Assembly: GCA_002774875.1 (NCBI GenBank)
Contig: PCYM01000006.1
Span: forward strand, 91,095 to 137,834
Length of the DNA stretch: 46,740 nt
Source of the DNA: Candidatus Uhrbacteria bacterium CG10_big_fil_rev_8_21_14_0_10_50_16
GTDB taxonomy: Bacteria > Patescibacteriota > Patescibacteriia > UBA9934 > UBA11717
Direction: 5' to 3'
The notes below the pieces were generated by a model that was not told the origin of the DNA, did no database searches, and saw nothing but the letters and a program-made list of their open reading frames with translations. Made by a program: the position numbers and the translations under genes. Positions 19,217-46,590 of the stretch are shown piece after piece (the first letter of the stretch is position 1; each line of letters opens with the position of its first letter).

Positions 19217-19225
19217 AGTATAACA
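19217..19225 (-). promoter_or_regulatory. Extended -10 promoter (TGTTATACT) 9 nt upstream of the tktN ATG
   Basis: The rc of agtataaca is TGTTATACT. There is no Shine-Dalgarno site. Confidence 0.5.
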
Positions 19226-19230
19226 AAATT

Positions 19231-25951: not shown

Positions 25952-26899
25952 ATGAAAACAATTAAAGAAAAAGGAGATTGGAACCTGTTTGTTATGGAAC
26001 ACGCACCCAGAAGTGGGGCGTTTTTGCAATCGTGGGAATGGGGAATGGTCAAACAGTTCCAGGGAATGACGGTGGATCGATACCAGGGAAACGAGGCACA
26101 ATGCCAACTTGTAACGATGTCACTTCCGTTTGGAAAACAGTATGGCTATATTGGACGGGGACCGCTCGGAATATCGCATGAAGCGGAACGGGATGTTGTA
26201 ACGCGCCTCAAACAGCTTCGAGAACAGGATGTATTTTTACGCGTGGATGCGTGTAGACCGATCGTTGGAAGACTAACAGGAGAGGTGCAGCCGGCTCATA
26301 CACTGATTACGCATGTGCACGCAGATGATCAAGCTCTGCTGGCGGAGATGCATACCAAAACACGGTACAATATCCGTCTTGCCGAGAGAAAGGGAGTAGA
26401 GGTGATCCTTGATGCTGGGGAAGAGGGATTTGAGGCGTTTATAGCGTTAACAGAGGCGACTTACAAGCGACACAAGATTCGATCACATGCCAAGGACCAT
26501 TATCGCGCGATTTTAGATTGTCTTAATGGAGAGGGGGATGCGCCTCGGGCGTTTATTGCCATGGCCAAGCTGGATGAGGAAGTGTTGGCGGCGAATTTGA
26601 TGATCGACTGGAACGGCACACGCACGTATTTACATGGCGCGTCGTCGGACAATAATAAGCAACTCATGGCTCCCTATTTGTTGCATTGGAAGTTGCTACA
26701 AAACGCGTCATTTAAAGAAACTTTTGCCTACGATTGGTGGGGTGTTGCGCCGGAGAGTGCTGTAGACCATCCGTGGGCGGGTGTGACGCGATTTAAACAG
26801 GGGTTTGGTGGTGAGATGGTAGAGATGCCGCAGACGGTAGATGTGGTGGTGAATCCGTTTTGGTACGGTGTCTACTCTTTGGTAAAACGGTTCAGATAA
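25952..26899 (+). CDS. FemAB-family peptidoglycan aminoacyltransferase (lipid II interpeptide-bridge type)
   Basis: FLQSWEWG...TRYNIRLAERKGV...YLHGASS...APYLLHW is the FemAB/FemX-type pattern. The first ATG was chosen; the track start is a TTG at 25940. Confidence 0.8.
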   Translation: MKTIKEKGDWNLFVMEHAPRSGAFLQSWEWGMVKQFQGMTVDRYQGNEAQCQLVTMSLPFGKQYGYIGRGPLGISHEAERDVVTRLKQLREQDVFLRVDACRPIVGRLTGEVQPAHTLITHVHADDQALLAEMHTKTRYNIRLAERKGVEVILDAGEEGFEAFIALTEATYKRHKIRSHAKDHYRAILDCLNGEGDAPRAFIAMAKLDEEVLAANLMIDWNGTRTYLHGASSDNNKQLMAPYLLHWKLLQNASFKETFAYDWWGVAPESAVDHPWAGVTRFKQGFGGEMVEMPQTVDVVVNPFWYGVYSLVKRFR

Positions 26900-26938
26900 A
26901 AAAGGCACGCCCGGCCGACAGATTCGTCGACCGGGCGT
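26898..26938 (-). terminator. GC-rich intrinsic terminator of cassette-1 ORF
   Basis: Stem ACGCCCGGTCGAC/GTCGGCCGGGCGT (one mismatch) followed by T6 on the minus strand. Confidence 0.7.
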
Positions 26939-26954
26939 ACGTTGATGTTGCGAA

Positions 26955-27278
26955 TCAGACGAGCGGCTCCTCCCCCCTGCTCTTTCGCATAGAGTTGATG
27001 ATCTCGCAGACGGCGGCTCGAGAGATACCGTGCCTGCGCACCAGGTTGATCCCGGTGTCCACGTACCTCCTGGTCCCCGCCGACGTTCCGTTGCTCGTCA
27101 CCACCAGAAAGCAGGTGAGTCCGAAGCTCGGCACCATCTTCCTCATGTACGGCATCGTCTGGATGTCACCCATGATCTTCACCTCGGTGATCTCGACGCC
27201 CCTCTTACCTCCTCCCCCTTTCAGGATGGTGTAGGTTCCACGATCTGCTTCCCTCGACCTCGACTGCGTGTGGCCCAT
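26955..27278 (-). CDS. High-GC orphan protein with a C-terminal helix-turn-helix-like segment (cassette 1)
   Basis: 107-aa ORF. Third codon positions are overwhelmingly G/C in this frame. The Shine-Dalgarno site GAAAGGGGGA is 6 nt upstream of the ATG. The C-terminus is GINLVRRHGISRAAVCEIINSM. Confidence 0.55.
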   Translation of the reverse strand: MGHTQSRSREADRGTYTILKGGGGKRGVEITEVKIMGDIQTMPYMRKMVPSFGLTCFLVVTSNGTSAGTRRYVDTGINLVRRHGISRAAVCEIINSMRKSRGEEPLV

Positions 27279-27301
27279 TGTGGGTCCCCCTTTCTGTGAT
27301 G

Positions 27302-27329
27302 GTTATATCAGTATACAACAAAAAGTCAA
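27302..27329 (-). promoter_or_regulatory. Candidate promoter of cassette-1 ORF (TTGACT-16 nt-TATAAC)
   Basis: The rc of 27324-27329 is TTGACT and the rc of 27302-27307 is TATAAC. It overlaps the neighbouring host terminator. Confidence 0.45.
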
Positions 27330-27351
27330 GACCCAGCTAGGCTGGGTCTTG
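27320..27351 (-). terminator. Intrinsic terminator of the envelope-locus operon
   Basis: Perfect 11-bp stem CAAGACCCAGC/GCTGGGTCTTG with a 3-nt loop, followed by ACTTTTTGTTG on the minus strand. Confidence 0.8.
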
Positions 27352-27353
27352 TG

Positions 27354-29318: not shown

Positions 29319-29320
29319 AG

Positions 29321-31888: not shown

Positions 31889-31902
31889 GTGGATCTGTGT
31901 TT

Positions 31903-33063
31903 TCAGGATCTTGAGATGGTGTAGAGATCCATAAGGGCGCGAGCGTGATCGTCCCAAGAATATTTCTTGAGCACGTCATGACTGGCACTGAGAACGCGAA
32001 TGCGCTCTTGCTTGTTTGTGAGCAATGTCTCCATGGCTGCAAACAAATCTTCGATATCGTTTGGATCAAAATAGGTGGCTGCCGGTCCCAAGATTTCTGG
32101 GATCGAACTTGCACGAGACGCTGCTACAGGTGTTCCGTGACTCAGTGCCTCCAGGGGAGGGATGCCGAATCCTTCGAGTTTTGAAGGGATCACGTACACG
32201 CTCGCCTGCGAATACAGGTTGGAGAGCATGGTGTCGTCGACAAAACCGAGAAAATGCACACGGTTGCTTGGAATCTCTATTTCTCGTGCCTCGGCTTCTA
32301 ATTGTTGCGTAAAGGAGTTGCGAGGTCCAACGAGGACGAGATGCGCTTCGGGGTGTTCCTTCACAAAAAAGCTAAACGCATGGAGTAGCGTTTCGATATT
32401 TTTATGAGGATACGGGTTGCCGACGTTGAGAAAAAACGGTGTTTGAACGCCTGGCGGTAATGGCAAGGAGCGCGCGGTCTGTTTGTTTTGTTTTTGCGCT
32501 AAGATTGCTGCGCTTTCAACACCATTATACACCACATGTACCCGGTCTGGGGAGATGTTTAACCTGTGGATGATTTGTCCTTTTGCATAATCGCTCACCG
32601 TGATGATGTTGCGCGCGTGTTGTGCAATGTGGGCGAGGATTTTTTGTTGCCCGAACTGTTTAAGTTGATACTTCCACGGGGCAAGGGTGGTGGCTCTGGA
32701 CGCCCACGTTTGATCGAGCATGATGAGGTCATGAATCGTACACACGAAAGGTGTTTTTGCACGTAAGGGAACGTTAAAGTGGGGGTAATGGATGAGGTCC
32801 AACTTCTGTTTGTAGATGATCCGTGGCATGTAGAGCTGCTCGGCGAGGGAATACCAGGGAATGTCGGCCACGACCTTTGTCCAACGGGATTTGAGTGCCG
32901 GAGGAATGGCACAATCGTCAAAATTTGCTCGACGCAAAAAAAGCACATACTCGTTTTCTGTGTCGAGTTGTTGCAAATGCGTGACGATTTCTTCTACGTA
33001 GCGCCCAACGCCCGCTCCTCCTATTTTTGGCCCGTACATCCGGGCGTCGATTCCTATTCGCAT
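31903..33063 (-). CDS. Glycosyltransferase, GT4 (group 1) family
   Basis: MRIGIDARMYG...GGAGVGRY... with the C-terminal segment PSKLEGFGIPPLEALSHGTPVAAS (E-x7-E region). Confidence 0.85.
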   Translation of the reverse strand: MRIGIDARMYGPKIGGAGVGRYVEEIVTHLQQLDTENEYVLFLRRANFDDCAIPPALKSRWTKVVADIPWYSLAEQLYMPRIIYKQKLDLIHYPHFNVPLRAKTPFVCTIHDLIMLDQTWASRATTLAPWKYQLKQFGQQKILAHIAQHARNIITVSDYAKGQIIHRLNISPDRVHVVYNGVESAAILAQKQNKQTARSLPLPPGVQTPFFLNVGNPYPHKNIETLLHAFSFFVKEHPEAHLVLVGPRNSFTQQLEAEAREIEIPSNRVHFLGFVDDTMLSNLYSQASVYVIPSKLEGFGIPPLEALSHGTPVAASRASSIPEILGPAATYFDPNDIEDLFAAMETLLTNKQERIRVLSASHDVLKKYSWDDHARALMDLYTISRS

Positions 33064-33069
33064 ACATTT

Positions 33070-33078
33070 AGTATAGCA
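33070..33078 (-). promoter_or_regulatory. Extended -10 promoter (TGCTATACT) 6 nt upstream of the GT4 ATG at 33063
   Basis: The rc of agtatagca is TGCTATACT. The same 12-mer, AGTATAGCATGG, recurs upstream of trpS at 39785-39796. Confidence 0.5.
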
Positions 33079-33100
33079 TGGAGGGGAAAGGAGGTGCGTG

Positions 33101-33334
33101 ATGAACGACGTACCCACGTGTCAGGTTGAGTTGGTGAGTGTGGTGATGCATAAGGAATCGTCACCCGAGGAACAGAAGTTCCGGACGGCGCGGTTCCGCA
33201 TCCGCGTGAAGGATTCTAACGGACGTCTACGTACGCGCGTTGGAGGCTACAACAAGTTGGTCGCGGCCTTTGGTCCGAGCGTCGCCTCGCCCATCAAGGC
33301 CGCCTGGTCGGACTACGTCTACACGAACGCATGA
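33101..33334 (+). CDS. High-GC orphan small protein (cassette 2, ORF a)
   Basis: 77 aa, MNDVPTCQVELVSVVMHKESSPEEQKFRTARFRIRVKD.... The Shine-Dalgarno site GAAAGGAGGTG ends 4 nt upstream of the ATG. It lies opposite to the surrounding GT operon. Confidence 0.45.
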   Translation: MNDVPTCQVELVSVVMHKESSPEEQKFRTARFRIRVKDSNGRLRTRVGGYNKLVAAFGPSVASPIKAAWSDYVYTNA

Positions 33335-33415
33335 ACCGCTCTATCTCTGGGGCGGCTCAATTATTTTATAAAAAGGGGGTCAGGTACTTCCTTCTAACAT
33401 TCCTCCCCACATCCT

Positions 33416-33444
33416 TGACAAAGTGCCGATTTTATGGTATTTAG
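33416..33444 (+). promoter_or_regulatory. Candidate promoter (TTGACA-17 nt-TATTTA) for cassette-2 ORF b
   Basis: Consensus -35 at 33416-21, 17-nt spacer, -10 at 33439-44. Confidence 0.5.
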
Positions 33445-33496
33445 GGCGTGTCATAAAGACCGCTACCGCCGTAAGCGGCAACCATTCGGAGGAGTA

Positions 33497-33700
33497 ATGG
33501 CTCGATTGGAAAGCCCGTATTGGGATGAGCGACTTGGGGTGTGCGAGAAGCACTACCTGCCGTCTGTCCCGTGCCCGGCCTGCCTCGCAGATCGGGACGA
33601 GGACGTGGTAGTCGTGCTCGACGAGCTCGAGCGTGGGGGATGGGTCCTCTACGATGAACTCGCCATCCCGAAGGGGTTCGAGAACCACAACCGGCGGTAG
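33497..33700 (+). CDS. High-GC orphan small protein with a zinc-ribbon-like CxxH...CxxC motif (cassette 2, ORF b)
   Basis: 67 aa, MARLESPYWDERLGVCEKHYLPSVPCPACLADRDEDVVVVLDELERGGW.... The Shine-Dalgarno site GGAGGAG is 2 nt upstream of the ATG. The track start at 33434 was trimmed. Confidence 0.5.
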   Translation: MARLESPYWDERLGVCEKHYLPSVPCPACLADRDEDVVVVLDELERGGWVLYDELAIPKGFENHNRR

Positions 33701-33749
33701 CGCAACGTGCCGCCCAGCAAGAACCATCCACTTCGAAAGGAGGTGGCGG

Positions 33750-34889
33750 TCACTTGGTGGGCGGTTCTTGTTTTAAATAATTCAACGTCTCTTGCGCGCA
33801 GAGGTTCCAGGTAAATTGTTTGGCTTGCTCAATCCCGCGTGTGCGTAGCTCGGCCTGTAGTTGCGGATCGCGTAGAAGTTGATCAATCGTTTGCGTGAGC
33901 TCATTTGCATTCATCGCGCGTACCGAGAGGACCGCATCGGACCCTACCTCTAATAAACTACTGTTGCGTGCGGTAATCACAGGCGTTCCGCAAGCCATGG
34001 CCTCGGTAATCTGCATCCCAAATCCTTCGTAGCGCGATGGCAACACAAGCGCCGTTGCCCCACGGAGCAGCGCAGGTCTATCCGTATCGTCTACAAACCC
34101 AAGTACATGAATATCTTGTTTGTAGGGGGAGCGGTTGATAGCAGAATCAAGTGCGCGACGTTTCCATCCACGGCCGCCCGCGAGGACAAGGTGCTCTGTG
34201 TGTCCCTGCGTGCGGAGCTGATTATAGCTTTCCACAAGGGACACAAGATTTTTGCGTGGTTCGCACGTGGCGAGTGAGAGGAGATAGGGGTGTGTAATGC
34301 CAAGTCGTTGTTTACGTGTTGTATCATCCGGCCGTTTTCGTTCTTGAAATTGTGTGTGGTCTAGCCCGTGTAAAATAGTTTTGCAGTTTTGGGGTGATCG
34401 ACCAAATGCGGTAAAGAGATCGTGCTGGCTATGGTCGGACACGGCGATGACCTTGGTGGCATGTTGCAGCGTTGTGCGCGCACGCGTGATCCTATACCGC
34501 ACGTGGTGGAGCTGATTATAGGTTTCTGAGAGCAAAACCCAGGCAAGATCATGCACGGTCACCACGGTTGGAATCTGCGTGCGCGGCAAGTACCCGGTGT
34601 TAGGATACCAAACAACATCTACCGACTCGCCCAGCAGATGCTCGAGCGAAACGAATCCAAGAGCAATTGCCGAGTTGATGAGTTTATTGGGAATGCGGCG
34701 ATGAATATGACGAACGTGGGGAAGCAACTGGAGGGAAGAGGGGAGTGCAAGCGGTTTCCATCCGCGCGAAAAAAAGACGAGTTGTGTGTGCTCGTCGGGG
34801 TGCATGGCTTGTATTGTTTCCAACACATAATGACCCACGCCGCTTGGTGTGGTGCCATAGAGACTTTGAATATCAATCGCGATCTTCAT
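33750..34889 (-). CDS. Glycosyltransferase, GT4 family
   Basis: MKIAIDIQSL...GVGHYV... with the C-terminal segment PSRYEGFGMQITEAMACGTPVITA. Confidence 0.85.
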   Translation of the reverse strand: MKIAIDIQSLYGTTPSGVGHYVLETIQAMHPDEHTQLVFFSRGWKPLALPSSLQLLPHVRHIHRRIPNKLINSAIALGFVSLEHLLGESVDVVWYPNTGYLPRTQIPTVVTVHDLAWVLLSETYNQLHHVRYRITRARTTLQHATKVIAVSDHSQHDLFTAFGRSPQNCKTILHGLDHTQFQERKRPDDTTRKQRLGITHPYLLSLATCEPRKNLVSLVESYNQLRTQGHTEHLVLAGGRGWKRRALDSAINRSPYKQDIHVLGFVDDTDRPALLRGATALVLPSRYEGFGMQITEAMACGTPVITARNSSLLEVGSDAVLSVRAMNANELTQTIDQLLRDPQLQAELRTRGIEQAKQFTWNLCAQETLNYLKQEPPTK

Positions 34890-36000
34890 GGGTGTCTGTA
34901 TTGGCGCTATGAATCATAGAGACCATTTCTTGTATTTGATTCGTAAACGCTTTGTGTGAAAACTGTTCGCTGTGCGCCCTAATCGCCTGCGGATCAAACT
35001 GTGTGTGGTCAAATCGAATCAACGCGTCGGCGAGACTCTCCCAGGTTTGCTCGTCAAAAAACGCTCCTGTTTTACCATCGATAATCGTCTCCGTGGCTCC
35101 GCCTTTGTTGTAGGCAATCACCGGTCGACCGCACGCCATAGCCTCCACAACCGTAATTCCAAAGTCCTCCTCTTGTGGATTAAGATAGGCAATACAGTCT
35201 TGGTAAAGTCGCGCTTTTTCCTCGTCGCTCACGCGTCCCAAGAATTGGATGTTGTCTTTTGCGATGGCTTTAAGCTCGTCCACCATCGGGCCGCTGCCAA
35301 AAATCTTGAGCGGCAAACGGAGTCGATTAAACGTCTCTACAATGAGATCAAATTTTTTGTATGCCATGATCCGACCGCCTGCGAGGAAGTAGGTCTTGGG
35401 TGCGTCGGAGAGAGAAAACGCTTCTGTGTCTACGGGCGGGAACACCACGCGCGCGTCGGATCGGTAATATTTAAGAATACGTTGTCGTACCGTGGCCGAG
35501 TTTGCCAAAAATTGATCCACGCGATCCGCCGCGTGCCTGTCCCATTCGCGCAGGCGAGAAAGATAAAGCGGCAACAGTTTTTTTACCATCACGGGCACGT
35601 TAAGGTTGTCCACGTACTCATGCATCTCTGTCCAAAGGTAGCGTGTGGGCGTGTGACAGTAGCAAAGGTGCACCGCGTCTTGTCGTGTAATGATTCCCTT
35701 AGCGAGCGAGCTGACGCTGGAAATTACAATGTCATACTCGCGTAGATCGTATTGCTCCGTAGCATGTGGCATGAGTGGAAGGAGCCATTGGAAGGGGAGG
35801 AGCGTAAAGGGAAAACGATTTAAAAAAGAGGTGCGGACGGTGCCCAGAATAGGCGGATCAAAGCGCTCCGGTTTATAGGCAAGCGTATAAATGGGCGCGT
35901 TTGGGTAGAGTGAAGATAAAACACGGAGTACGCGCTCTGCGCCTCCGTCTTGGGTGAGGTGATCGTGAACGAGAGCAATTTTTGGCTCGGAATCTTGCAT
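34873..36000 (-). CDS. Glycosyltransferase, GT4 family
   Basis: KIALVHDHLTQDGGAERV... with the C-terminal segment PQEEDFGITVVEAMACGRPVIAY. It overlaps the downstream GT by 17 nt. Confidence 0.85.
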   Translation of the reverse strand: MQDSEPKIALVHDHLTQDGGAERVLRVLSSLYPNAPIYTLAYKPERFDPPILGTVRTSFLNRFPFTLLPFQWLLPLMPHATEQYDLREYDIVISSVSSLAKGIITRQDAVHLCYCHTPTRYLWTEMHEYVDNLNVPVMVKKLLPLYLSRLREWDRHAADRVDQFLANSATVRQRILKYYRSDARVVFPPVDTEAFSLSDAPKTYFLAGGRIMAYKKFDLIVETFNRLRLPLKIFGSGPMVDELKAIAKDNIQFLGRVSDEEKARLYQDCIAYLNPQEEDFGITVVEAMACGRPVIAYNKGGATETIIDGKTGAFFDEQTWESLADALIRFDHTQFDPQAIRAHSEQFSHKAFTNQIQEMVSMIHSANTDTHEDRD

Positions 36001-36071
36001 GTGCTGATCTTAGCACTTTAGAAGACCCTTCGGCAAATGGATTGGTAGGTACGTGGGCGTTGGAGAGATAT

Positions 36072-36108
36072 TTTTCAAAACACCGACGATCGTCGTATAT
36101 TTGAAAAA
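36072..36108. repeat. Palindromic element copy D (core at 36084-36095)
   Basis: TTTTCAAAACAC-CGACGATCGTCG-TATATTTGAAAA. The left arm matches copies B and C and the right arm matches copy A. It lies within the GT operon intergenic gap. Confidence 0.75.
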
Positions 36109-36138
36109 TTCGGAAGGCACACAAAAGCAATTCTCTGT

Positions 36139-37560
36139 CTATTTTGCGCCGCGGGAGAGGAGAACAACCCATGCGGTTTTTGCGAGAATTTGGAGATCCA
36201 GCAAAGGGCTCCAGTTTTCAATATAGTAGGTGTCCAGTCGAACTTCGTCGTTAAAATCCAGATCAGCGCGGCCGGAGACCTGCGCCATGCCGGTGATCCC
36301 GGGCTTGATCGTGAGCACTTTTAAATGCTCTGGTTTGTACTGTGCGACTTCTTCTGGAAAATGCGGTCGCGGTCCCACAAGACTCATTTTTCCAAACAAC
36401 GCGAGGTAGAGCTGAGGAATCTCATCAATACTTGTGCGTCGCATAAACTGCCCAAACCGCGTAATACGTGGGTCGTGTTCTAACTTAAAGAGGGGAGTCC
36501 CTGCGCGATCATTTCCATGCTCGGCGAGAAAGTCTTTATCAAATCGCAACTTGTGCGCATCTTTAACCATGGAACGGAATTTAATAAACGTAAACGGCTT
36601 GCCACCTTCTCCCACGCGTTGCACAGGTTTTCCGTTTGGCAGTTTACGGAAAAGAATCCCGCCTTGCCGTTCGACGAGGAGGACAATGGCAACGATCAGC
36701 TGAATTGGGGAACTGAGAAGAATTAACAGGAGCGAGACAATTAAATCAAACGCACGTTTATAGATACGTCCCCAGCCATCCAATGGGGTTTGTTTGACTT
36801 CAAAAAGTGGGATGCCGGCAAAGGTATGTGGTTCTAACTTGGATGTCGACGCCTCTAATAAGTCTGCCGTATAGTAAAAATTGATGTGTTGTTGTTCGCA
36901 GAAAGCGAGCAGTGTGAGCGCTTCTTTTCTGCTGGCGTCTGGATTGGCAAACATGACCTCGTCTACCGCTCCGCGTGATTTTTTGCGGATAATCCAACTC
37001 TGCGTCTCCTGATTAAACTGTGTGCGGGTGCCAATGACGTGGAATCCCAATCCTGGGTTTGTGCGGAACGCGTTCATAAGCGGGAGCGTTTCTTCTTTTG
37101 GACCGATTAATACCACGTGGCGTTGACCGTATCCGCGCGCCAACAAGGAGCGTTGCGCGAGTCGCAAGAGTAAACGCGCCAGAATCACAAAACACATGGC
37201 GAGCACCCATGCGACCAATACAATAAAACGTGAATCAAAAATTTCGCGGCTAAAAAAGATGACCGTAAATACCAGCATCATGCCTGTGGAGACAGCGTAG
37301 ATCACGCGGCCGATTTCTTCTCGGACAGACCTGCGCTTAATGCTGTAGAGACGATTGGCAGCAAAAATAAGAATCCAAAATACGGCCACGCCCAGGACCA
37401 CGCGCAAAAGTTCGTTGACGTCGATGTTGAATCGAACCGGGAGGACTTCGGCGACGCGTGGGTGAATACGAATCCAATATGCAGTCCAGCCGGCAAGAAC
37501 AATCATGGCAGCATCAATCGGAACGCGGATTCCAGCAAAAAACAAGTCAAGTCGTTTCAT
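36139..37560 (-). CDS. Polyprenyl-phosphate sugar phosphotransferase (WbaP/bacterial sugar transferase family)
   Basis: 473-aa ORF with N-terminal TM segments. The C-terminal catalytic domain contains KRAFDLIVSLLLILL...FIKFRSM...DEIPQL...MSLVGPRP. Confidence 0.9.
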   Translation of the reverse strand: MKRLDLFFAGIRVPIDAAMIVLAGWTAYWIRIHPRVAEVLPVRFNIDVNELLRVVLGVAVFWILIFAANRLYSIKRRSVREEIGRVIYAVSTGMMLVFTVIFFSREIFDSRFIVLVAWVLAMCFVILARLLLRLAQRSLLARGYGQRHVVLIGPKEETLPLMNAFRTNPGLGFHVIGTRTQFNQETQSWIIRKKSRGAVDEVMFANPDASRKEALTLLAFCEQQHINFYYTADLLEASTSKLEPHTFAGIPLFEVKQTPLDGWGRIYKRAFDLIVSLLLILLSSPIQLIVAIVLLVERQGGILFRKLPNGKPVQRVGEGGKPFTFIKFRSMVKDAHKLRFDKDFLAEHGNDRAGTPLFKLEHDPRITRFGQFMRRTSIDEIPQLYLALFGKMSLVGPRPHFPEEVAQYKPEHLKVLTIKPGITGMAQVSGRADLDFNDEVRLDTYYIENWSPLLDLQILAKTAWVVLLSRGAK

Positions 37561-37568
37561 GTGATTGG

Positions 37569-37577
37569 ATTATACCA
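37569..37577 (-). promoter_or_regulatory. Extended -10 promoter (TGGTATAAT) 8 nt upstream of the sugar transferase ATG
   Basis: The rc of attatacca is TGGTATAAT. There is no Shine-Dalgarno site. Confidence 0.5.
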
Positions 37578-37621
37578 GCTCGCCCACAAGGATGACAGAA
37601 CACGCGATGTATAACGCAAAC

Positions 37622-37641
37622 AAAAAACCCCCAAGGGGGTT
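37622..37641 (-). terminator. Intrinsic terminator of rnpB
   Basis: AACCCCCTTGGGGGTT followed by TTTTGTTT on the minus strand. Confidence 0.7.
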
Positions 37642-37659
37642 GTCTGTGTTCTTCCCAAA

Positions 37660-38095
37660 GGTATAAGCCTTGGGACACCTGTAAGCCGAATTCTGTCTAG
37701 CCACGTAAAGCTCCAAGGAGCTACGTGGGAGACCGCGATCTATCTGGGCACAACATTGCTGTTGGGCTCGAGCGTGCTACCAAATTTGCACTTGCACCGG
37801 GATGGGTTTACCACGTCACTCTGTCACCAGAGGACGAGTTGCGTGATGTACAACCGAAGTCGCACACCGTATCGCAGCACTTTTCACCTTAAGCCGTGAG
37901 CGGCCGTATTGTCTCTGTGGCACTTTCCCTAGGCTTTGTGCATCTCTCACTCACAGGAATCCAATGAGTGAACGATCCACGTATACCCGGTCGCCGTTAA
38001 CGACATCCCTTGTTCTGGACATTGCTGTCGCAGAGGTGTTCGGACTTTCCTCCCAGTAACCTGGGCCGCGGTCCGGTGCTCCTGTAAAGGATAAG
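37660..38095 (-). ncRNA. rnpB: RNase P RNA, bacterial type A (ends approximate)
   Basis: The minus strand carries GGGAGGAAAGTCCGAAC (CR-I), AAGGTGAAAAGTGC, GTAAACCCATCCCGGTGCAAGTGCAAAT, CCCAGATAGATCG and GACAGAATTCGGCTTAC (CR-V). The order and spacing match E. coli M1 RNA. P1 can form between CCTTTACAGGAGCACC and GGTGTCCCAAGG. Confidence 0.9.
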
Positions 38096-38104
38096 AACGG
38101 GATA

Positions 38105-38133
38105 AAGATACAGGAAAAGTAAGCTTTTGTCAA
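38105..38133 (-). promoter_or_regulatory. rnpB promoter (TTGACA-17 nt-TATCTT)
   Basis: The rc of 38128-38133 is TTGACA and the rc of 38105-38110 is TATCTT. The predicted start is a few nt upstream of P1. Confidence 0.6.
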
Positions 38134-38184
38134 CCGTATTGAGGCCTCAGTAGGCTAGTATTAGCTGTATATCCGCTATTTGTC

Positions 38185-38213
38185 TTGACAGCAGGCTGTT
38201 TTTATACTATAAG
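38185..38213 (+). promoter_or_regulatory. Promoter of the mini-sigma ORF (TTGACA-17 nt-TATAAG)
   Basis: -35 at 38185-90, 17-nt spacer, -10 at 38208-13. It is divergent from the rnpB promoter. Confidence 0.55.
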
Positions 38214-38269
38214 CTAAGGGTCGAAAGACGACGCCTCATGAGAGACGCCACTCTATCTCGGGAGAGAAC

Positions 38270-38710
38270 ATGGCAAAGAAGGCAAATCGAGAAGATGAGC
38301 TCAGGGAGCTCCTCGCGTCACAGGTAGCGGATATGGAGCAGGGCCCCGTGGTCATGCCCAAGGAACTGCCTAGCGGAGTTGATGGTGCTGTGCGGATGTT
38401 CTATGCGGACATCGAGGGTCAGTCGGCGCCGGACGTGCGTACTGCGGCGCGGCGCGATCCGGTCGTCGATCGTAGTCCGAGCGAGCTGGCCCTTGGGGTT
38501 CTGGTCTCGCTCACTGAGCCGCAGCAGTGCGTCCTGCGGATCCGGTTCGGAATCAATGCAGGCAGCAGCGACGGTGTTCCGGCGTCGGAGGAATCCAGAA
38601 CGCGTGAGCGTATCCGGCAGATCGAGGCGATGGCGTTGCGCAAGCTCCGTCACCCGTCTCGTGTGTTCCGCCCCCGTTCCACCACGGTAGACTCCACCGA
38701 AACGGAGTGA
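38270..38710 (+). CDS. High-GC mini sigma-70-like protein with region 1.2-like and region 4.2 segments only (cassette 3)
   Basis: 146 aa. [16 protein letters not shown]...[21 protein letters not shown] matches RpoD region 4 almost exactly (E. coli has [21 protein letters not shown]). [11 protein letters not shown] resembles region 1.2 (DPVRMYMREMG). Regions 2 and 3 are absent. Confidence 0.6.
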   Translation: [146 protein letters not shown]

Positions 38711-38721
38711 ACGATCTCTAC

Positions 38722-38762
38722 GGCCCCGTGTGCACTTTCTGCACCGGGGTCGTGGTCTTTTT
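38722..38762 (+). terminator. Intrinsic terminator of the mini-sigma ORF
   Basis: Stem CCCCGTGTGCA/TGCACCGGGG followed by TCGTGGTCTTTTT. Confidence 0.65.
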
Positions 38763-38788
38763 AAAACACCTCCGCCAGGGAGGTGTTT
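38763..38788 (-). terminator. Intrinsic terminator of trpS
   Basis: Stem ACACCTCC/GGAGGTGT followed by a T-run on the minus strand. Confidence 0.7.
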
Positions 38789-38790
38789 AG

Positions 38791-39777
38791 TTACTTTAGG
38801 GAAACGCCAACCTTCTTTCTGACGATCGCCATCTTTGCGGCGGCAATCTCTCGCGCCCGCGCCGCACCGGCGTCTAACACACGAATAAGCTCCGCCTCGT
38901 CTGCCAAATACTCACCGATTCTTTTCTGTAGGGGACTTAGGTAGCCAATAAGCGCTGCGGCCGTATCCTTTTTAAGATCGCCATAGCCCTTACCTTGGTA
39001 GGCCTGCAGTATCTGCTCCGTGGTTTGATCGCTCGCTAAGCTGTAAATGTCGATCAAGTTTTTAATCCCTGGCTGGTCGTCTGAATAGTTGATGGCGCCT
39101 TTGTCATCCGTCACTGCAGACATGATTTTTTTGTGAATCACGTCGGAGCTATCCATGAGCGAGATGTAATTTTTCTCGCTGTTTGCACTCTTGCTCATTT
39201 TTTTTGTGGGATCGTCGAGGCCGAGAATCTTGGCGCCAACTTCTTTGAGTTTTACCTCGGGTACATGAAATGTCTCGCCGTAAATACGATTAAATCGTTC
39301 GGCAATCGTGCGTGCTAATTCCACGTGCTGCTTTTGATCGTAACCCACGGGCACCATACGTGCGTCGTAGAGAAGGATGTCGGCCGCCATGAGAATCGGA
39401 TACGTAAACAGTGCCACGGGGACGTTCTCGCCCTGCATGATGGCTTTATCTTTGTATTGTGTCATACGCTCAATCTCGCTCATGCGCATGAGGGTAGAAA
39501 AAATCCATGCGAGTTCTGTGTGCTCTGAGACGGCGGATTGTTGGAACAAAATATTTTGTTCCACGTTGATTCCAGCGGCGAGATAGGTGGCCGCAAGCGC
39601 GAGAATATTTTTACGCAGGAGGGCGGGGTCGGACTCGGTGTCCATGGCATGATAATCCACGATCATCACAACACCGTTATAATTGACCTGAAAATCGACA
39701 AGCTGCTTGACCGAGCCAAAGTAGTTTCCGATGTGTAAAAGGTTGGTTGGGCGAATGCCGGTGAGGAAATCTGTCAT
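38791..39777 (-). CDS. trpS: Tryptophan--tRNA ligase
   Basis: 328-aa ORF with the HIGH-type motif TGIRPTNLLHIGNYFG, the KMSKS motif KKMSKSA, and class Ic size. Confidence 0.95.
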   Translation of the reverse strand: MTDFLTGIRPTNLLHIGNYFGSVKQLVDFQVNYNGVVMIVDYHAMDTESDPALLRKNILALAATYLAAGINVEQNILFQQSAVSEHTELAWIFSTLMRMSEIERMTQYKDKAIMQGENVPVALFTYPILMAADILLYDARMVPVGYDQKQHVELARTIAERFNRIYGETFHVPEVKLKEVGAKILGLDDPTKKMSKSANSEKNYISLMDSSDVIHKKIMSAVTDDKGAINYSDDQPGIKNLIDIYSLASDQTTEQILQAYQGKGYGDLKKDTAAALIGYLSPLQKRIGEYLADEAELIRVLDAGAARAREIAAAKMAIVRKKVGVSLK

Positions 39778-39784
39778 ATAGGGG

Positions 39785-39793
39785 AGTATAGCA
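39785..39793 (-). promoter_or_regulatory. Extended -10 promoter (TGCTATACT) 7 nt upstream of the trpS ATG
   Basis: The rc of agtatagca is TGCTATACT. There is no Shine-Dalgarno site. Confidence 0.5.
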
Positions 39794-39845
39794 TGGTTTT
39801 CTTCCTTCTTTTTGTTTTGCTAAAAAGGAGAGATAAAACAATATT

Positions 39846-39900
39846 TAAAAAAATGTGCGCCCGCCCCAGAGCCTCCAGGATGGAGGAAGGGCGAGCGTCA
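39846..39900 (-). terminator. Candidate terminator of cassette-4 ORF
   Basis: On the minus strand, the inner hairpin CCTCCA/TGGAGG is nested in CTCGCCC/GGGCGGG, followed by CGCACATTTTTTT. Confidence 0.4.
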
Positions 39901-39917
39901 TGGAGCGATCGTGGTGG

Positions 39918-40787
39918 TCAGGCGGCGTCGTCGTCGTTGGAGCCGTGCCGTCCGAGCTGAGCCGAGCGAACCGTGCCGAGGAAGGACGTGCGATGACCTT
40001 GGCCGAGTCCGGAGGAGTGCGCTCGCATGCCGGACACGAGGGCTGCCTGATCTCCCAGAGCAACCTGCAGGGGCTCGATCACGTTCTGAAGGGCGTTGCC
40101 GAGAAAGTGCCTCTCTACGCCGTGCTGGATCATGTAGGTGACGCCGGCGCTCATCTCAAGCCATGCCCTGGCCATCTCGGGGGCCAGTGAGTGAGCAGAT
40201 GCCTCCCACGCCAGCCGTTCGCCATAGGCCTTGTGCTGCAAGGCGGAGAGCAGGTTGGCCGTGAATCGGTTCCAATCCAACTGACCGTTCGCGTTGTACA
40301 AAACCTTTCCCCAGACACCCGCTCCACTGCTCTGCAAGTAGAGGTAGGCTTCCGAGAGAAAAAGACCGATGATGAACAGGAACATGGCCGGATCCGTGCG
40401 ACCCGCGTTGCCTTGGAGACGATTCCGCAGATCACGCTCCACGTCTCCCGTGAAGATGAGCACGACGTGCTCCAGACCAGCGGCGCTGGTCGCCATGCCT
40501 GCCGAACTGTCGACACGTCCCACGAACGCCGGGATGTGCTCGACAAGTCGTGTTCCTTGCCCACGAACGGTGTGAGGACCCTGTCCCAGCTTGAGCGCGA
40601 GGCCCATGGGCTCGTTGGGATCCTCCACCTCGTTCCCGCTGGAGAAGTCCAGCCTGCGTTCTTCGACCTGATTGCTCGGCGTGCGGCGGCCAGCCGCGGC
40701 CGTGCGCCCCATGAACTGGGGTTGTCCCCAGCGCTGCCACGCGAACATCAAACCAATACCCATCAACAATGCCAGCAGGTATCCCAT
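39918..40787 (-). CDS. High-GC orphan membrane-anchored protein (cassette 4)
   Basis: 289 aa from the ATG at 40787, with the Shine-Dalgarno site GGAGGG 8 nt upstream. N-terminal TM is MGYLLALLMGIGLMFAW. Of the many overlapping ORFs here, this frame has strongly G/C-biased third positions. I recognise no motif. Confidence 0.55.
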   Translation of the reverse strand: MGYLLALLMGIGLMFAWQRWGQPQFMGRTAAAGRRTPSNQVEERRLDFSSGNEVEDPNEPMGLALKLGQGPHTVRGQGTRLVEHIPAFVGRVDSSAGMATSAAGLEHVVLIFTGDVERDLRNRLQGNAGRTDPAMFLFIIGLFLSEAYLYLQSSGAGVWGKVLYNANGQLDWNRFTANLLSALQHKAYGERLAWEASAHSLAPEMARAWLEMSAGVTYMIQHGVERHFLGNALQNVIEPLQVALGDQAALVSGMRAHSSGLGQGHRTSFLGTVRSAQLGRHGSNDDDAA

Positions 40788-40963
40788 TATGGGGGCCCTC
40801 CAATTGCTCGAGAGAAACTCTACGAGCGGGTTTATTCGCAATCCAATCTCAACCTATCATTCCCAGGGAAACTGTCAACAGGCGCATGGGGGAATGAGAT
40901 CAAACTTGTGGCCAACCTTGCGGCTTTTTTGCACTCGGTCTATACTTTTTCTATAACGAACTC

Positions 40964-41305
40964 ATGCCTATGAACAAAGCGGATCTCGCCGGACGTATTG
41001 CGGACCGGCTCGGACTTACCAAAAAACAAGGAGAGGATGTGGTTGATACCTTTCAATCATTGGTTACAGAGTCGCTTGCGCGGCAGGATGAAGTGACAAT
41101 CGCAGGGTTTGGAACCTTTTCCTCACGGATTCGTTCTGCGCGCATGGGCGTCAATCCACAAAAACCGTCAGAGCGCATTCGCATCCCAGAAGTGCTTGTT
41201 CCCAAGTTTAAAGCGGGAAAGGCGCTTAAAGATGCATTGAAAGCGGCACAAAAACCACCGGCGCCAAGCAATGCTTCTTCACCTGCTCCCTCGTCTACCT
41301 TGTAA
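40964..41305 (+). CDS. hup: HU-family DNA-binding protein with a Pro/Ala/Ser-rich C-terminal tail
   Basis: MNKADLAGRIADRLGLTKKQGEDVVDTF...VTIAGFGTFSSRIRSARMGVNPQKPSERIRIPEVLVPKFKAGKALKDAL, then KAAQKPPAPSNASSPAPSSTL. Confidence 0.85.
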   Translation: MPMNKADLAGRIADRLGLTKKQGEDVVDTFQSLVTESLARQDEVTIAGFGTFSSRIRSARMGVNPQKPSERIRIPEVLVPKFKAGKALKDALKAAQKPPAPSNASSPAPSSTL

Positions 41306-41308
41306 ACC

Positions 41309-41338
41309 AAAAACCCCTGCCTGTTTGGCGGGGGTTTT
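41309..41338. terminator. Bidirectional terminator between hup and rny
   Basis: AAAAACCCCTGCC-TGTTT-GGCGGGGGTTTT. Confidence 0.7.
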
Positions 41339-41348
41339 GCTTGGGCAC

Positions 41349-42875
41349 TTAACGTGCGTACTCGGTAATGCGTGTCTCTCGAATCAACGTCACCTTAACT
41401 TCTCCCGGATAGCGGAGCTCGCTTTCAATCTTCTTGGCGATGTTCTTGGCGAGTTGATAGGACTGTAAATCGTCGATGTTGGTTGGGTTCACAAACACAC
41501 GCACCTCACGACCGGCTTGGATGGCATACGCCTTTTCCACTTCCTCAAAACTTGTGGCGGTTCGCTCCAACTCTTCTAATCGTTGAATGTATTGTTCAAA
41601 GGTATTCTTACGCGCGCCGGGACGTGCACCTGAGATGGCGTCGGCCGCCTTTACAATCACTGCCTCTAACGTCTTTGGTTTGTCCACGTGGTGACCAATG
41701 GATTGATAAGCGATCTCCTCGGGGAATCCAAATTTCTTCATGATATTGTAGCCAATCTCCGGGTGACTACCTTGCATGTCATGGTCCACAGCTTTTCCAA
41801 TATCATGGAAGAGCCCGCCCTTGGTACACACGTGCACGTCGGCGCCCAGCTCCTCGGCCAACATGCGGGCGATGGTTGCAACCTCCATGGCGTGTTGCAA
41901 TTGATTTTGTCCGTAGCTGGTGCGGAACTTGAGCCGTCCAAGAATCTGCACGAGTTTTGGATCCACGGAAGACACTGGGATGGCTAACTCAGACAACGCA
42001 TCCTCTCCGGCCTTCTTCATCTCAACAGCTAATTCCTTTTTGGCAAGTTTTACGGCCTCCTCAATGCGGGCTGGTTGTACACGACCATCCTTGACTAACA
42101 TCTCAATGGCGCGCTTGGCGACTTGTCTGCGAACAGGGGAGAAGGAGCTTACTGTGACGGCCATTGGTGTGTCATCCACAATAATCTCCGTTCCGGTAAT
42201 GGTCTCAAGCGTGCGAATATTGCGACCTTCTTTTCCAATAATGCGTCCCTTCATCTCGTCGGACGGCAATTGCACAGTAGACGTGGTGGTCTCCGTTGCA
42301 TGGCCCGACGCGTAACGTTCAATCACAAGGGCGAGCATTTTATTGGCCTTGCGCCCAAGTTCTTCCTCCACGGATTGATCGAGTTTTCGCAGACGGCTCT
42401 CTAACGCCTCTGCCTCGTCGGCCTCGATTTCCTTCATTAACTCCTCCAACGCTTGCTCACGTGTCATGCCGGCGATGGTCTGAAGCTTTTCCATAGCCTC
42501 TGTGTCCAATACCTCCAAGCGTGCCTTGATTTTACGTAAACGCTCCTTTTCTTCCTCTAATCGATCGTATTTTCCCTCCAAATCGAGGAGTTTTTGATCG
42601 AACGTATTCTCTCGTTGCTCTACGCGTTCCTGAAGCTTTTTGACCTCTTGGCGCAATTCCTTGGCCTCGGCTGTCGCGTCGTTAATCACTTGAACCGATT
42701 TTTGCTTGGCATCTAGCAATAATTCTTGCTGTTTGCTTTTGGCGTCTGCAATGATTTTTTCGGCCTGTCCCTCTGCCTGACCGGTTCGGTACGTTGCCAA
42801 TCGTGCCCGAACAAGGAATCCACCGGCACTTCCGGCCAATATTCCTAAGATGACATAAATAAAAGTAAAATCCAT
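41349..42875 (-). CDS. rny: Ribonuclease Y
   Basis: 508-aa ORF with an N-terminal TM, a long coiled coil, a KH domain (GRIIGKEGRNIRTLE) and an HD domain (LFHDIGKAVDH...GHH). Confidence 0.95.
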   Translation of the reverse strand: MDFTFIYVILGILAGSAGGFLVRARLATYRTGQAEGQAEKIIADAKSKQQELLLDAKQKSVQVINDATAEAKELRQEVKKLQERVEQRENTFDQKLLDLEGKYDRLEEEKERLRKIKARLEVLDTEAMEKLQTIAGMTREQALEELMKEIEADEAEALESRLRKLDQSVEEELGRKANKMLALVIERYASGHATETTTSTVQLPSDEMKGRIIGKEGRNIRTLETITGTEIIVDDTPMAVTVSSFSPVRRQVAKRAIEMLVKDGRVQPARIEEAVKLAKKELAVEMKKAGEDALSELAIPVSSVDPKLVQILGRLKFRTSYGQNQLQHAMEVATIARMLAEELGADVHVCTKGGLFHDIGKAVDHDMQGSHPEIGYNIMKKFGFPEEIAYQSIGHHVDKPKTLEAVIVKAADAISGARPGARKNTFEQYIQRLEELERTATSFEEVEKAYAIQAGREVRVFVNPTNIDDLQSYQLAKNIAKKIESELRYPGEVKVTLIRETRITEYAR

Positions 42876-43035
42876 AGGTGTAGTAAACCTTCTGGATAAA
42901 CGTCAAGAAACGGATCTAAAATCCTACCGTTTTGCCCAATGTGAGCGGCTAACCTTCGCTAAATACTCCAAGTAGAAAGAGAAATCCATTTGCAGAACAT
43001 CCATACCAGCAGGTGCAATAGTAATAACTGCTCTA

Positions 43036-43064
43036 AGCGTACTGCCAGAAAGGGCAAATGTCAA
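43036..43064 (-). promoter_or_regulatory. Candidate distal promoter (TTGACA-17 nt-TACGCT) about 150 nt upstream of rny
   Basis: The rc of 43059-64 is TTGACA and the rc of 43036-41 is TACGCT. Its function is unknown. Confidence 0.35.
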
Positions 43065-43154
43065 TGTGTTTTGGGTGGTTGAACGGCAATGGTAAGAAGG
43101 TCCTCTTCTTGATCTTGCGGGGGTTTGTGGTTCTATGGCGCGGAAGGAGGCCAC

Positions 43155-43637
43155 ATGGCACAAAATTACGGTTCGGGAAATGGAAAGAAGCGCAAGGCTT
43201 TTAGGCCGAGCCGGTCTGAAAAGCGCATGGTGAGGGAGGAATACGAACGCAGCACACGGATATGGAAGGAGTCGACGAGTCGTTGGCGGGGCCCTCAACC
43301 TGTGCTGCCCAAGGAGGGTACCGATGAGTGGAAGAAGATGCTCGAGGAAGCACGCCGGCGGAAGCGTCATAGGTACCAGTCTCGCAAGCCATCGCAGCCT
43401 GTTCCCAGGAACGCGCCGGCGATTACTCCGCGCGCGGCGGTGTATTTGCCGGATGGACGCAATGATGACGGTTCGAGCCGGCTCGTGGTCGTGGTATTCC
43501 TGATCGCCACGATATCGGCAATCACTTGGCTCTGGGTGAGCACCGTGATGAACTCCGACACGGGAGATGATGACGACTCCGCATCGACGCAGTCGGTGCC
43601 TTCCGAGCAGCTCCTCTTCGGCGTCGGACCGTGGTAG
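43155..43637 (+). CDS. Elevated-GC orphan protein with a basic N-terminus, one TM segment and an acidic tail (cassette 5)
   Basis: 160 aa from the ATG at 43155, with the Shine-Dalgarno site GGAAGGAGG 4 nt upstream. TM is LVVVVFLIATISAITWLWV. I recognise no motif. Confidence 0.5.
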   Translation: MAQNYGSGNGKKRKAFRPSRSEKRMVREEYERSTRIWKESTSRWRGPQPVLPKEGTDEWKKMLEEARRRKRHRYQSRKPSQPVPRNAPAITPRAAVYLPDGRNDDGSSRLVVVVFLIATISAITWLWVSTVMNSDTGDDDDSASTQSVPSEQLLFGVGPW

Positions 43638-43683
43638 CGCCTCTGGGTCTGTGCGTGATCTGGTAGATTCGTCTGAACGAAAA

Positions 43684-43714
43684 CGAGCCCGTCCTGGGCT
43701 CGCTCATTTTTTTT
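43684..43714 (+). terminator. Intrinsic terminator of cassette-5 ORF
   Basis: Stem CGAGCCC/GGGCTCG with loop GTCCT, followed by CTCATTTTTTTT. Confidence 0.75.
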
Positions 43715-43738
43715 AAACGCTTTTTACAAAAACAGTTA

Positions 43739-44452: not shown

Positions 44453-44459
44453 ACACAAA

Positions 44460-44468
44460 ATAGTAACA
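44460..44468 (-). promoter_or_regulatory. Extended -10 promoter (TGTTACTAT) 7 nt upstream of the truB ATG
   Basis: The rc of atagtaaca is TGTTACTAT. There is no Shine-Dalgarno site. Confidence 0.45.
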
Positions 44469-44531
44469 CACGCATTGACGAAACTGGTAAAAACCGCTAT
44501 CTTAAGGCCACATAACTCTCCTTTTACATCC

Positions 44532-46547: not shown

Positions 46548-46551
46548 ACTT

Positions 46552-46573
46552 AAAAGCGCCCGAGGGCGCTTTT
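46552..46573. terminator. Bidirectional terminator after infB
   Basis: AAAAGCGCC-CGAG-GGCGCTTTT. Confidence 0.75.
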
Positions 46574-46590
46574 AAGTTTGCATAATTAAA

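Follow-up and report, generated by a model that had tools for sequence, protein, structure and literature searches.

Autonomous promoter-gene-terminator units inserted between phage genes are known from lambdoid phages as morons, and core-flanked, replacement-type islands with accessory or defense cargo are known as flexible islets or hot spots. Compositional islands are routinely taken as recent transfer, and accessory or orphan genes normally lie at or below the GC content of the genome. A study of 4644 gut species shows that, in GC content and GC3s, species-specific orphans follow conserved genes almost one to one (rho 0.96), with virus-like orphans having a lower GC (PMC11293555). In Mycobacterium tuberculosis, the ratio between leaderless and Shine-Dalgarno (SD) transcripts is described as shifting with physiological state (PMC8485053). 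Here we compare with these systems a 46,740-nucleotide stretch (the window) of contig PCYM01000006.1, positions 91,095 to 137,834, from Candidatus Uhrbacteria bacterium CG10_big_fil_rev_8_21_14_0_10_50_16, in which six short open reading frames (ORFs), named c1, c2a, c2b, c3, c4, and c5, occupy five GC-rich islands between core genes. We propose, with a probability of roughly 0.6, that the islands belong to a resident second class of genes of the Uhrbacteria clade, comprised of autonomous, insulated, SD-led units with near-neutral protein evolution and G/C-ending codons that are held in place. No description of such a gene class in candidate phyla radiation (CPR) bacteria was found in the open-access literature text.

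The six ORFs are c1 (26955-27278, minus strand; 107 aa, GC 0.60), c2a (33101-33334, plus; 77 aa), c2b (33497-33700, plus; 67 aa), c3 (38270-38710, plus; 146 aa, GC 0.63), c4 (39918-40787, minus; 289 aa, GC 0.63), and c5 (43155-43637, plus; 160 aa). Their GC content at third codon positions (GC3) is 0.82, 0.74, 0.78, 0.71, 0.75, and 0.70, respectively, compared with 0.497 for 38 neighboring genes (standard deviation 0.050, maximum 0.609; z = 4.1-6.5 per ORF; Mann-Whitney p = 1.4e-7). Every island is also a tetranucleotide outlier, its distance exceeding that of 299-300 of 300 same-size resident segments, and in a window of 49.7% GC overall, long runs above 58% GC extend over 26885-27300, 33130-33780, 38276-38797, 39822-40841, and 43179-43716. 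The original prediction, made from the letters of the stretch, had described five compositionally distinct segments and six ORFs with G/C-dominated third positions; its eight G+C counts per 60-nt line are all exact, and both the GC3 and the tetranucleotide statistics agree that the segments are real.

The GC excess is confined to the coding sequence (CDS) and terminator and resides mainly at the third codon position. Averaged over 24 genes of the class, GC stands at 0.48 upstream, climbs along the CDS from 0.57 to 0.67, drops to 0.58 over the first 60 nt downstream, and then returns to 0.48. GC1 and GC2 are likewise somewhat higher in class genes, and there is a mild shift in amino acid content relative to core genes (Arg rises from 5.5% to 9.2%, while Lys falls from 4.8% to 3.2% and Ile from 6.6% to 4.2%). 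Like orphan genes, these ORFs are short, evolve fast, have few homologues or none, encode partly disordered products, and appear native rather than viral; unlike the gut orphans cited above, they exceed the core genes by 10-14 GC points and by 0.2-0.4 in GC3.

The contrast extends to expression signals. The mean energy of the duplex between SD and anti-SD is -10.9 kcal/mol for the six ORFs versus -3.0 kcal/mol for the 38 neighbors (p = 2e-4), only 4 of which reach -8 or lower. Intrinsic terminators consisting of a hairpin and a U-run are convincing for five of the six ORFs, with z-scores of -3.3 to -6.5 for the c1, c2b, c3, and c4 hairpins, while that of c2a is weak. Strong ribosome-binding sites in all six ORFs that are mostly wanting in host genes, GC-rich hairpins with T-runs after most of them, and a self-contained layout had all been predicted, and all are borne out, with islands built of single-gene units that have a 5' untranslated region (UTR) with a strong SD, a CDS, and usually their own terminator. 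The predicted TTGACA boxes do exist upstream of three ORFs (c2b, c3, and c4), but a scan for promoters over the whole window does not exceed chance (13 against an expected 12.9) and conservation supports the box of c4 only. Like morons, the units are single ORFs with signals of their own, with convincing terminators in five of six cases and a promoter that conservation supports in c4 only, the other promoters being consensus-like boxes at chance level.

The core genes follow a different pattern. A TAnnnT -10-like box located 4-11 nt before the start, the signature of leaderless transcripts, occurs in 11 of 38 core genes of the window and in none of 29 class genes. In seven of these 11, including trpS, the sugar transferase gene, and two GT4 genes, it is a TG-extended -10 element (TGnTATAAT, TATACT, or TAAGAT) positioned 6-9 nt before the ATG. 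Extended -10 boxes, with no SD site, precede the operon-first genes for trpS (39778-39800), the sugar transferase (37561-37585), a GT4 (33064-33085), a PfkB kinase (10426-10445), an ATP-cone protein (2485-2505), and a neighbor of a DUF4349 gene (19208-19230), and trpS and the sugar transferase gene have the same arrangement in relatives (loci L081 and L082). Because these boxes lie so close to the ATG, we infer that core operons are leaderless or near-leaderless and lack SD sites, which suggests that leaderless mRNAs may be widespread in this CPR genome. As in mycobacteria, a single genome would thus hold two gene populations with different initiation signals, in this case read from sequence alone; unlike in mycobacteria, the division coincides with a maintained difference in codon composition, with gene age, and with evolutionary rate. 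In the eight Uhrbacteria loci that have GC3 outliers, the outliers likewise have a stronger mean SD than other genes. A 384-aa protein without a Pfam hit (3353-4507, plus) has a GC3 of 0.42 and a strong SD, AGGAGG (-11.7 kcal/mol), so SD use is not exclusive to the GC-rich class.

The flanks of the islands are core cellular genes encoding FemAB, DUF11/DUF4012 envelope proteins, three GT4, a sugar transferase, RNase P RNA, TrpS, HU, RNase Y, and TruB. The order rny-hup-trpS-rnpB-sugar transferase-GT4-GT4-GT4-DUF4012-DUF11-femAB is kept across Uhrbacteria, a CPR lineage in which the host is placed by TrpS neighborhoods. The flank names in the original prediction were correct, as was its supposition of a CPR host. 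The nearest genome is UBA11717 (locus L006, running on into L096/L097 at 100% identity), and the second-nearest is GCA_016845155.1 (loci L082 and L098, on a single contig).

The c4 unit, in the slot between trpS and hup (39845..40878, minus), comprises a conserved promoter (TTGACA at 40878-40873, 16 nt, and TAGGTT at 40856-40851), the SD GGAGGG (40801-40796), the CDS, and a composite terminator (39900-39856 with a U-run to ~39845; -28.5 kcal/mol). In four genomes the hexamers TTGACA and TAGGTT, spaced 16-17 nt apart, are invariant while the spacer and the UTR vary, which argues that they are a real -35/-10 pair. An exhaustive HMMER search of 1.84 billion representatives found three full-length homologues of c4 (P0128, P0129, and P0131; 37, 34, and 30% identity), and all three are encoded between hup and trpS, co-oriented with trpS (L081, L082, and L085). 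Their GC3 is 0.97 (L081), 0.92 (L082), and 0.88 (L085), compared with 0.55-0.71 in the adjacent hup and trpS. Between L081 and L082, the c4 homologues are 41% identical, trpS 95%, and hup 97%; between the window and these two loci, c4 is 34-37% and trpS 86-88% identical; and between the window and L085, the values are 29% and 81%. The identity ranking of the c4 family matches that of trpS, and its dN is 0.58-0.84 with a dN/dS of ~1. Judging from these comparisons, c4 is an old resident of its slot. The contig DOMJ01000047.1 of UBA11717 (L006 1-9) ends exactly at the trpS start, the edge of the same slot, and this break may reflect strain heterogeneity there.

The c4 product has an N-terminal transmembrane (TM) helix. 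Its only matches other than the full-length ones are three giant proteins of 2200-2500 aa, built of CshA/Big_3_5/cadherin-like Ig domains, in which residues 52-117 match 10-12 repeats (E 1e-17 to 1e-9; phmmer); this hints that these residues could form a beta-sandwich surface module. An AlphaFold2 model from four sequences is poor (mean predicted local distance difference test score of 55), being confident only in the helical part at 133-251 and unreliable at 52-117, and Foldseek comparison of the model with the PDB returned nothing under E = 0.26. Scanning metagenomes with the alignment of the c4 family gave no match, and scanning with FemAB gave distant relatives only.

Two further ORFs have homologues in place. 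The c1 unit, between femAB and the DUF11 gene (26905..27329, minus), has a consensus-like -35/-10 pair (TTGACT at 27329-27324 and TATAAC at 27307-27302), the SD AAAGGGGGA (27293-27285; -11.0 kcal/mol), the CDS, and a terminator hairpin with a U-run (26940-26905; -32.2 kcal/mol, z -6.5). Positional homologues occur in UBA11717 (L096 7005-7289; 94 aa, 31% identity, alignment z 16.7) and in L099 (10978-11277; 99 aa, 28% identity), both in the same place and orientation, with a GC3 of 0.72 and a strong SD, in loci of 49-55% GC; the UBA11717 homologue shares a near-identical SD context and an N-terminal MGH. FemAB of these genomes is 85% and 68% identical to that of the window, respectively. The c2a unit, in the gap between two GT4 genes (33087..33355, plus), has the SD AAAGGAGGT (33087-33095; -15.5 kcal/mol), its CDS, and the weak hairpin at 33336-33355, and is divergent from the apparently leaderless GT4 gene starting at 33063. 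In the same slot of UBA11717 (L006 6478-6711) is a homologue with 66% identity, a GC of 0.57 in a locus of 0.475, and an SD of -13.3 kcal/mol, among neighbors that are 76-92% identical to those of the window. In GCA_016845155.1 this slot is closed, the two GT4 genes overlapping, and in L002 and L099 it holds other genes. Both c1 and c2a encode small soluble proteins with conserved cores. These comparisons indicate that c1 is an old resident and that c2a is a resident shared with the closest relative. With positional homologues of this kind, c1, c2a, and c4 do not show the presence or absence between collinear relatives that marks morons, a pattern that c3 and c2b do show. The units also differ from morons in that the flanks are chromosomal core genes with no prophage.

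For c3 and c2b, the relatives tell of gain, and their presence or absence between close relatives is a likeness of these two to morons, alongside the general likeness of a single ORF with its own signals wedged between otherwise adjacent genes and a composition unlike its flanks. The c3 unit, between rnpB and trpS (38180..38761, plus), comprises a promoter-like stretch (38180-38213, including TTGACA at 38185-38190), the SD GGGAGAG (38260-38266), the CDS, and a terminator with a U-run (38718-38755; -28.5 kcal/mol, z -6.4). In alignment with UBA11717 and GCA_016845155.1 it is a ~640-bp insertion, with no target-site duplication at the junction. The slot is empty in these two genomes (L006 and L082) and in L004 and L005, while it holds three other ORFs in L002 and two in L013, with GC3-rich ORFs also in L010 and L011. 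Its absence from the nearest relatives marks c3 as a lineage-specific gain.

The original prediction had recognized a sigma-70 fragment, and no other product, among the six. Both statements hold: c3 is confirmed by Pfam and the NCBIfam RpoD models and is the only one of the six with known families. The Pfam Sigma70_r4 match (3.9e-5) scores 23.5 bits, just under the cut-off of 24.1. TIGR02393 RpoD_Cterm aligns residues 18-132 with profile positions 122-230 of 238, and NCBIfam RpoD models (E-values as low as 2.8e-14, residues 65-132) show the presence of region 4. The fragment keeps both region 4.1 and the recognition helix of 4.2, TRERIRQIEAMALRKLRHPS, the latter intact; the preceding helix is degenerate and two residues shorter. 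There is no Sigma70_r2 hit, region 2 being absent. By these matches, c3 is a fragment of regions 3-4 of a primary sigma factor rather than a sigma factor, and it may be able to bind the beta-flap or -35 DNA without acting as a sigma factor. In the databases, nothing matches c3 better than generic RpoD region 4, with identities of 61% or less. Region 4 of RpoD is among the most conserved protein segments in bacteria, and because such an identity is low for so conserved a segment, c3 appears to be an old or fast-evolving derivative and not a fresh copy.

The c2b unit (33415..33771, plus), in the same gap as c2a, has TTGACA (33415-33420) followed after 17 nt by TATTTA (33438-33443), the SD GGAGGAG (33488-33494; -9.5 kcal/mol), its CDS, and a long terminator hairpin (33702-33771; -39.6 kcal/mol, z -5.1) that overlaps the 3' end of the opposite-strand GT4 gene. 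Its product carries a CxxH...CxxC motif and is zinc-knuckle-like. There is no homologue in any fetched locus; in UBA11717, its place is taken by a low-GC (0.40) 191-aa ORF (L006 5872-6447, plus) on the opposite strand relative to c2b, encoding a run of short DVLQVK-like, coiled-coil-like repeats. On this comparison, c2b is likewise a lineage-specific gain.

The c5 unit, between rny and truB (43142..43714, plus), has the SD GGAAGGAGG (43142-43150; -12.3 kcal/mol), its CDS, and a terminator with a 7-bp GC stem and U8 (43684-43702 followed by T8). The product is a tail-anchored protein that is basic in its N-terminal half, with a single TM helix close to the C-terminus and an acidic tail. Homologues were found neither in the fetched loci nor in IMG/VR or INPHARED. 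The slot between truB and rny in GCA_016845155.1 (L082) contains a 241-aa ORF of the same orientation and architecture (GC3 0.77, SD -15.5), with no detectable similarity to c5 (z 0.4, no better than shuffles). Probably, c5 is an old resident that has diverged beyond recognition.

Members of the class also occur outside the window. About 700 bp past its right end, after infB, is a gene for a 453-aa protein (sig453; L086 14111-15472, minus; GC3 0.835, strong SD) with an unusual fusion of an N-terminal helix-turn-helix-like part, Sigma70_r4, and an RNA polymerase alpha C-terminal domain; in GCA_016845155.1, the orthologue at the same position (L082 468-1850) is only 28% identical and has a GC3 of 0.93. 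Further class genes are L098_117 (GC3 0.91), L099_133, L099_176, L099_57, two in L013 (0.88 and 0.86), three in L002, and one in L007. Class GC3 in relatives ranges over 0.72-0.97, and in a crude gene call over 26 loci, high-GC3 outliers with a strong SD are found mainly in Uhrbacteria loci. In L002 (Uhrbacteria SI072_bin87), the trpS|rnpB and GT4|GT4 gaps carry insertions of 2.0-2.3 kb (2895-5223 and 9477-11543) with several GC3-rich, SD-led ORFs, including a CheY-like receiver of 129 aa, beside genes of ordinary GC. Across different Uhrbacteria, the rnpB|trpS, GT4b|GT4a, hup|trpS, and ruvA|femAB gaps are either empty or occupied by unrelated GC3-rich ORFs. The use of a few conserved intergenic slots by variable, often unrelated accessory genes in each genome is reminiscent of flexible islets; unlike these, the slots of the window hold one or two small genes rather than multi-gene islands, without hits to defense families, their cargo is richer in GC than the genome, where accessory DNA is usually AT-rich, and the mode of initiation differs from that of the core.

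That the composition is actively maintained and not ameliorating is seen at four-fold degenerate sites in conserved codon families. Between L081 and L082, 41% of these sites differ in the c4 homologues, compared with 43% in trpS and hup, yet C<->G changes make up 22 of 33 differences (67%) in the former and 7 of 78 (9%) in the latter. Between sig453 and sig460, 51% differ, 28 of 41 (68%) being C<->G. Since synonymous turnover equals that of the neighbors and the sites nevertheless stay G/C, the c4 and sig453 families do not carry an ameliorating foreign signature. Nor is there an age trend of GC3 in the window, where the old c1 and c4 (0.82 and 0.75) stand beside the young c3 and c2b (0.71 and 0.78). 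In these respects, most units differ from morons as well, being inherited vertically in place with a compositional contrast at equilibrium and without decay.

In the arrangement that we propose, the five islands would be six autonomous single-gene transcription units placed in a limited set of inter-operon gaps. Extended -10 promoters lying 6-9 nt ahead of the ATG would drive the core operons, and transcription of c4, as its conservation shows, would start from a -35-containing promoter. All six would have a 5'UTR of 25-70 nt with a strong SD and their own intrinsic terminator, by which each class gene would be insulated from its neighbors. The units would differ in age, with c1 and c4 old, c2a common to the window and its closest relative, c3 and c2b gained, and c5 probably old, and their G/C-ending codons would be favored by a persistent force rather than representing a fading donor signature. 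As the excess sets in at the start codon without any acceleration of synonymous turnover, the most likely force would be selection on properties of codons or mRNA tied to a separate expression regime. The products would be small membrane-anchored proteins (c4 and c5), small soluble proteins (c1, c2a, and c2b), and a sigma region-4 fragment (c3), and we infer roles for them at the cell envelope, in interaction with a partner, and in the modulation of transcription, with either weak constraint or diversifying selection acting on them. The 3' ends of c2a (33345-33372) and c4 (39844-39871) share the sequence CTCTGGGGCGG(G)C...T-run, the only similarity across islands, and similar (C)TGGGG(G)CGG(G) motifs close both the c4 homologues (L081, L082, and L085) and the homologue of c2a in L006, so that this terminator-like sequence may be a terminator type common to the class.

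The original prediction had instead considered the cassettes to be moron-like genes acquired, recently, from a high-GC partner or its phages, with the composition as donor signature. Their composition, SD sites, and terminators are indeed unlike those of the flanks, their third-position composition is like that of high-GC genomes, and c3 (as a clean ~640-bp insertion) and c2b are absent from the two nearest relatives; for these two at most, recent gain of a moron is plausible. For c1, c2a, and c4 it is refuted by the homologues in the same Uhrbacteria slots, which have the same GC3 excess or a stronger one. Conservation at the same loci combined with host-like codon usage had been named as a result that would count against import; the loci are conserved, but the codon usage is not host-like. 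As for the codons, import is opposed by the lack of amelioration despite neighbor-level turnover at four-fold sites, and the GC of the oldest cassettes is no lower than that of the youngest, whereas the composition of recent transfer islands decays toward that of the host. A donor is likewise lacking in the large protein-database searches made for c1, c3, and c4: a word-indexed search of 5.8 billion protein clusters returned no homologue of c1, c4 has full-length matches only at hup|trpS, and c3 matches only generic region 4. PHROGs gave no hits except the generic sigma region 4 of c3, and IMG/VR and INPHARED held no relatives of c4 or c5; the single tail-fiber match of c1 in IMG/VR is a chance match to a repeat containing RYVDTGIN, and a phage origin was therefore rejected. 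A defense-system identity was rejected as well, PADLOC returning only a match of c3 to the sigma region 4 of MzaA. No plasmid or mobility signature was found: there is no integrase in the window, no mobile-element gene was seen near any slot, no tRNA serves as a target at the islands (the sole tRNA of the window is at 2583-2659), and no direct or inverted repeats flank any island. Integron attC sites are not apparent either, there being no shared imperfect inverted repeat beyond the terminator-like hairpins, and the units are scattered rather than arrayed. Recent import of the whole set is thus quite improbable.

Replacement at hot spots, with slot contents exchanged through conserved flanks from a GC-rich mobile pool of the Uhrbacteria (an unseen plasmid, phage, or high-GC sister lineage) so that the composition is imported ever anew, would account for the unrelated GC3-rich cargo in the same slots of different genomes, and some Uhrbacteria do have a genome-wide GC3 of 0.73-0.95 (L012). 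The 3rd-to-1st-position dinucleotide profile of the class, shared between genomes (r = 0.90) and distinct from that of the core (r = 0.51), also fits, but it resembles unrelated high-GC genomes too and does not separate resident from foreign genes. In the c4 family, however, an identity ranking that tracks trpS, a synonymous divergence equal to that of the neighbors, and promoter hexamers and part of the intergenic sequence conserved in place indicate vertical descent of the whole unit; class GC3 (up to 0.97, with a CDS GC of 0.73) is above that of any Uhrbacteria genome seen here, and the slots lack mobile-element genes. We regard replacement as an unlikely explanation. A local process at the DNA level, either GC-biased gene conversion or a unit-restricted, AT->GC-biased mutation or repair process driving both divergence and high GC, is compatible with the raised GC1 and GC2, the rise of Arg and fall of Lys and Ile, protein divergence at about the neutral rate, and synonymous differences dominated by C<->G, which fit any filter against A/T. 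Yet the excess of GC sets in at the start codon, with neither promoter nor 5'UTR included, and synonymous turnover is no faster than that of the neighbors, giving no sign of hypermutation. Conversion tracts would be expected to run past the borders of a CDS, but hup and trpS on the flanks are not enriched, and no reverse transcriptase or deaminase is nearby. Such a process has a low probability. Finally, GC-rich reads could have been misassembled, or non-coding GC-rich DNA could hold chance ORFs, which in high-GC DNA can be long on both strands, as at 40191-40973 (plus), antisense to c4. This is close to negligible: the junctions recur in independent assemblies, other genomes hold homologous units in the same slots, three-base periodicity is strong with GC3 far above GC2, SD sites are correctly spaced, and the first 60 nt of the CDS are lower in GC, as is typical of translated genes.

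Several points weigh against the proposal of a resident, maintained class. It is drawn from ~100 kb of ~10 genomes, and the claim of two classes covers these loci only. A dN/dS of ~1 in the c4 family is also expected of a non-functional ORF, a reading opposed by conservation of the TM helix, 35 invariant columns, and ORFs that stay intact at 267-324 codons. The hup|trpS slots of L001-L004 contain GC3-rich ORFs with no similarity to c4 by BLASTP or hhalign profile-profile comparison, so either slot replacement also occurs or divergence has passed beyond detection. The residency of c5 is supported by position, orientation, and architecture, and not by sequence similarity. Biased gene conversion or a local mutational process would hold sites at G/C equally well. 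Leaderless initiation and promoter use are predictions from the letters of the DNA, with the promoter scan at chance level.

Chimeric assembly, a possibility that the original prediction had wanted excluded, was rejected. The window is matched at 99.99-100% identity by five independent assemblies (two ENA, one JGI, and two Logan), the longest covering 33155-46740 and the shortest 39115-45149, and since these reproduce the junctions of c2b through c5, a chimera is excluded for them; the products of c1 and c2a are present on 3-4 contigs. Besides the ORF opposite c4, long antisense ORFs are found at 38318-38653 (minus) opposite c3 and 26860-27234 (plus) opposite c1, stop codons being rare at high GC3, and naive longest-ORF calling chooses the wrong strand at c1. 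Elsewhere in the window, a type IV pilus-like cluster of ordinary composition (10483-16228) encodes a pilin with an N-methylation motif, a PilB-type ATPase, a PilC-type platform protein, and several pseudopilins, and is typical for CPR bacteria.

A possible, though doubtful, extension of these observations is a genome-wide dual expression code, in which a leaderless, SD-less core of ordinary codon usage would be paired with a selectively maintained class defined by -35 promoters, 5'UTRs with strong SD sites, and almost exclusively G/C-ending codons, and switchable as a whole. The class would then consist of fast-evolving envelope, partner-interaction, and transcription-modulating proteins, including c3 and sig453, and the switch could work by way of the initiation pathway, the supply of tRNA, or the stability of mRNA, for instance when the cell meets its partner organism. 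If the two-class organization is true genome-wide, the Uhrbacteria would provide a clear case in which GC-based island callers mislabel resident genes, and a natural system for the upkeep of codon composition, by selection on mRNA and codons or by biased conversion, in a small-genome symbiont. The class would also supply candidate fast-evolving surface and transcription proteins for the dealings of CPR bacteria with their partners or phages.

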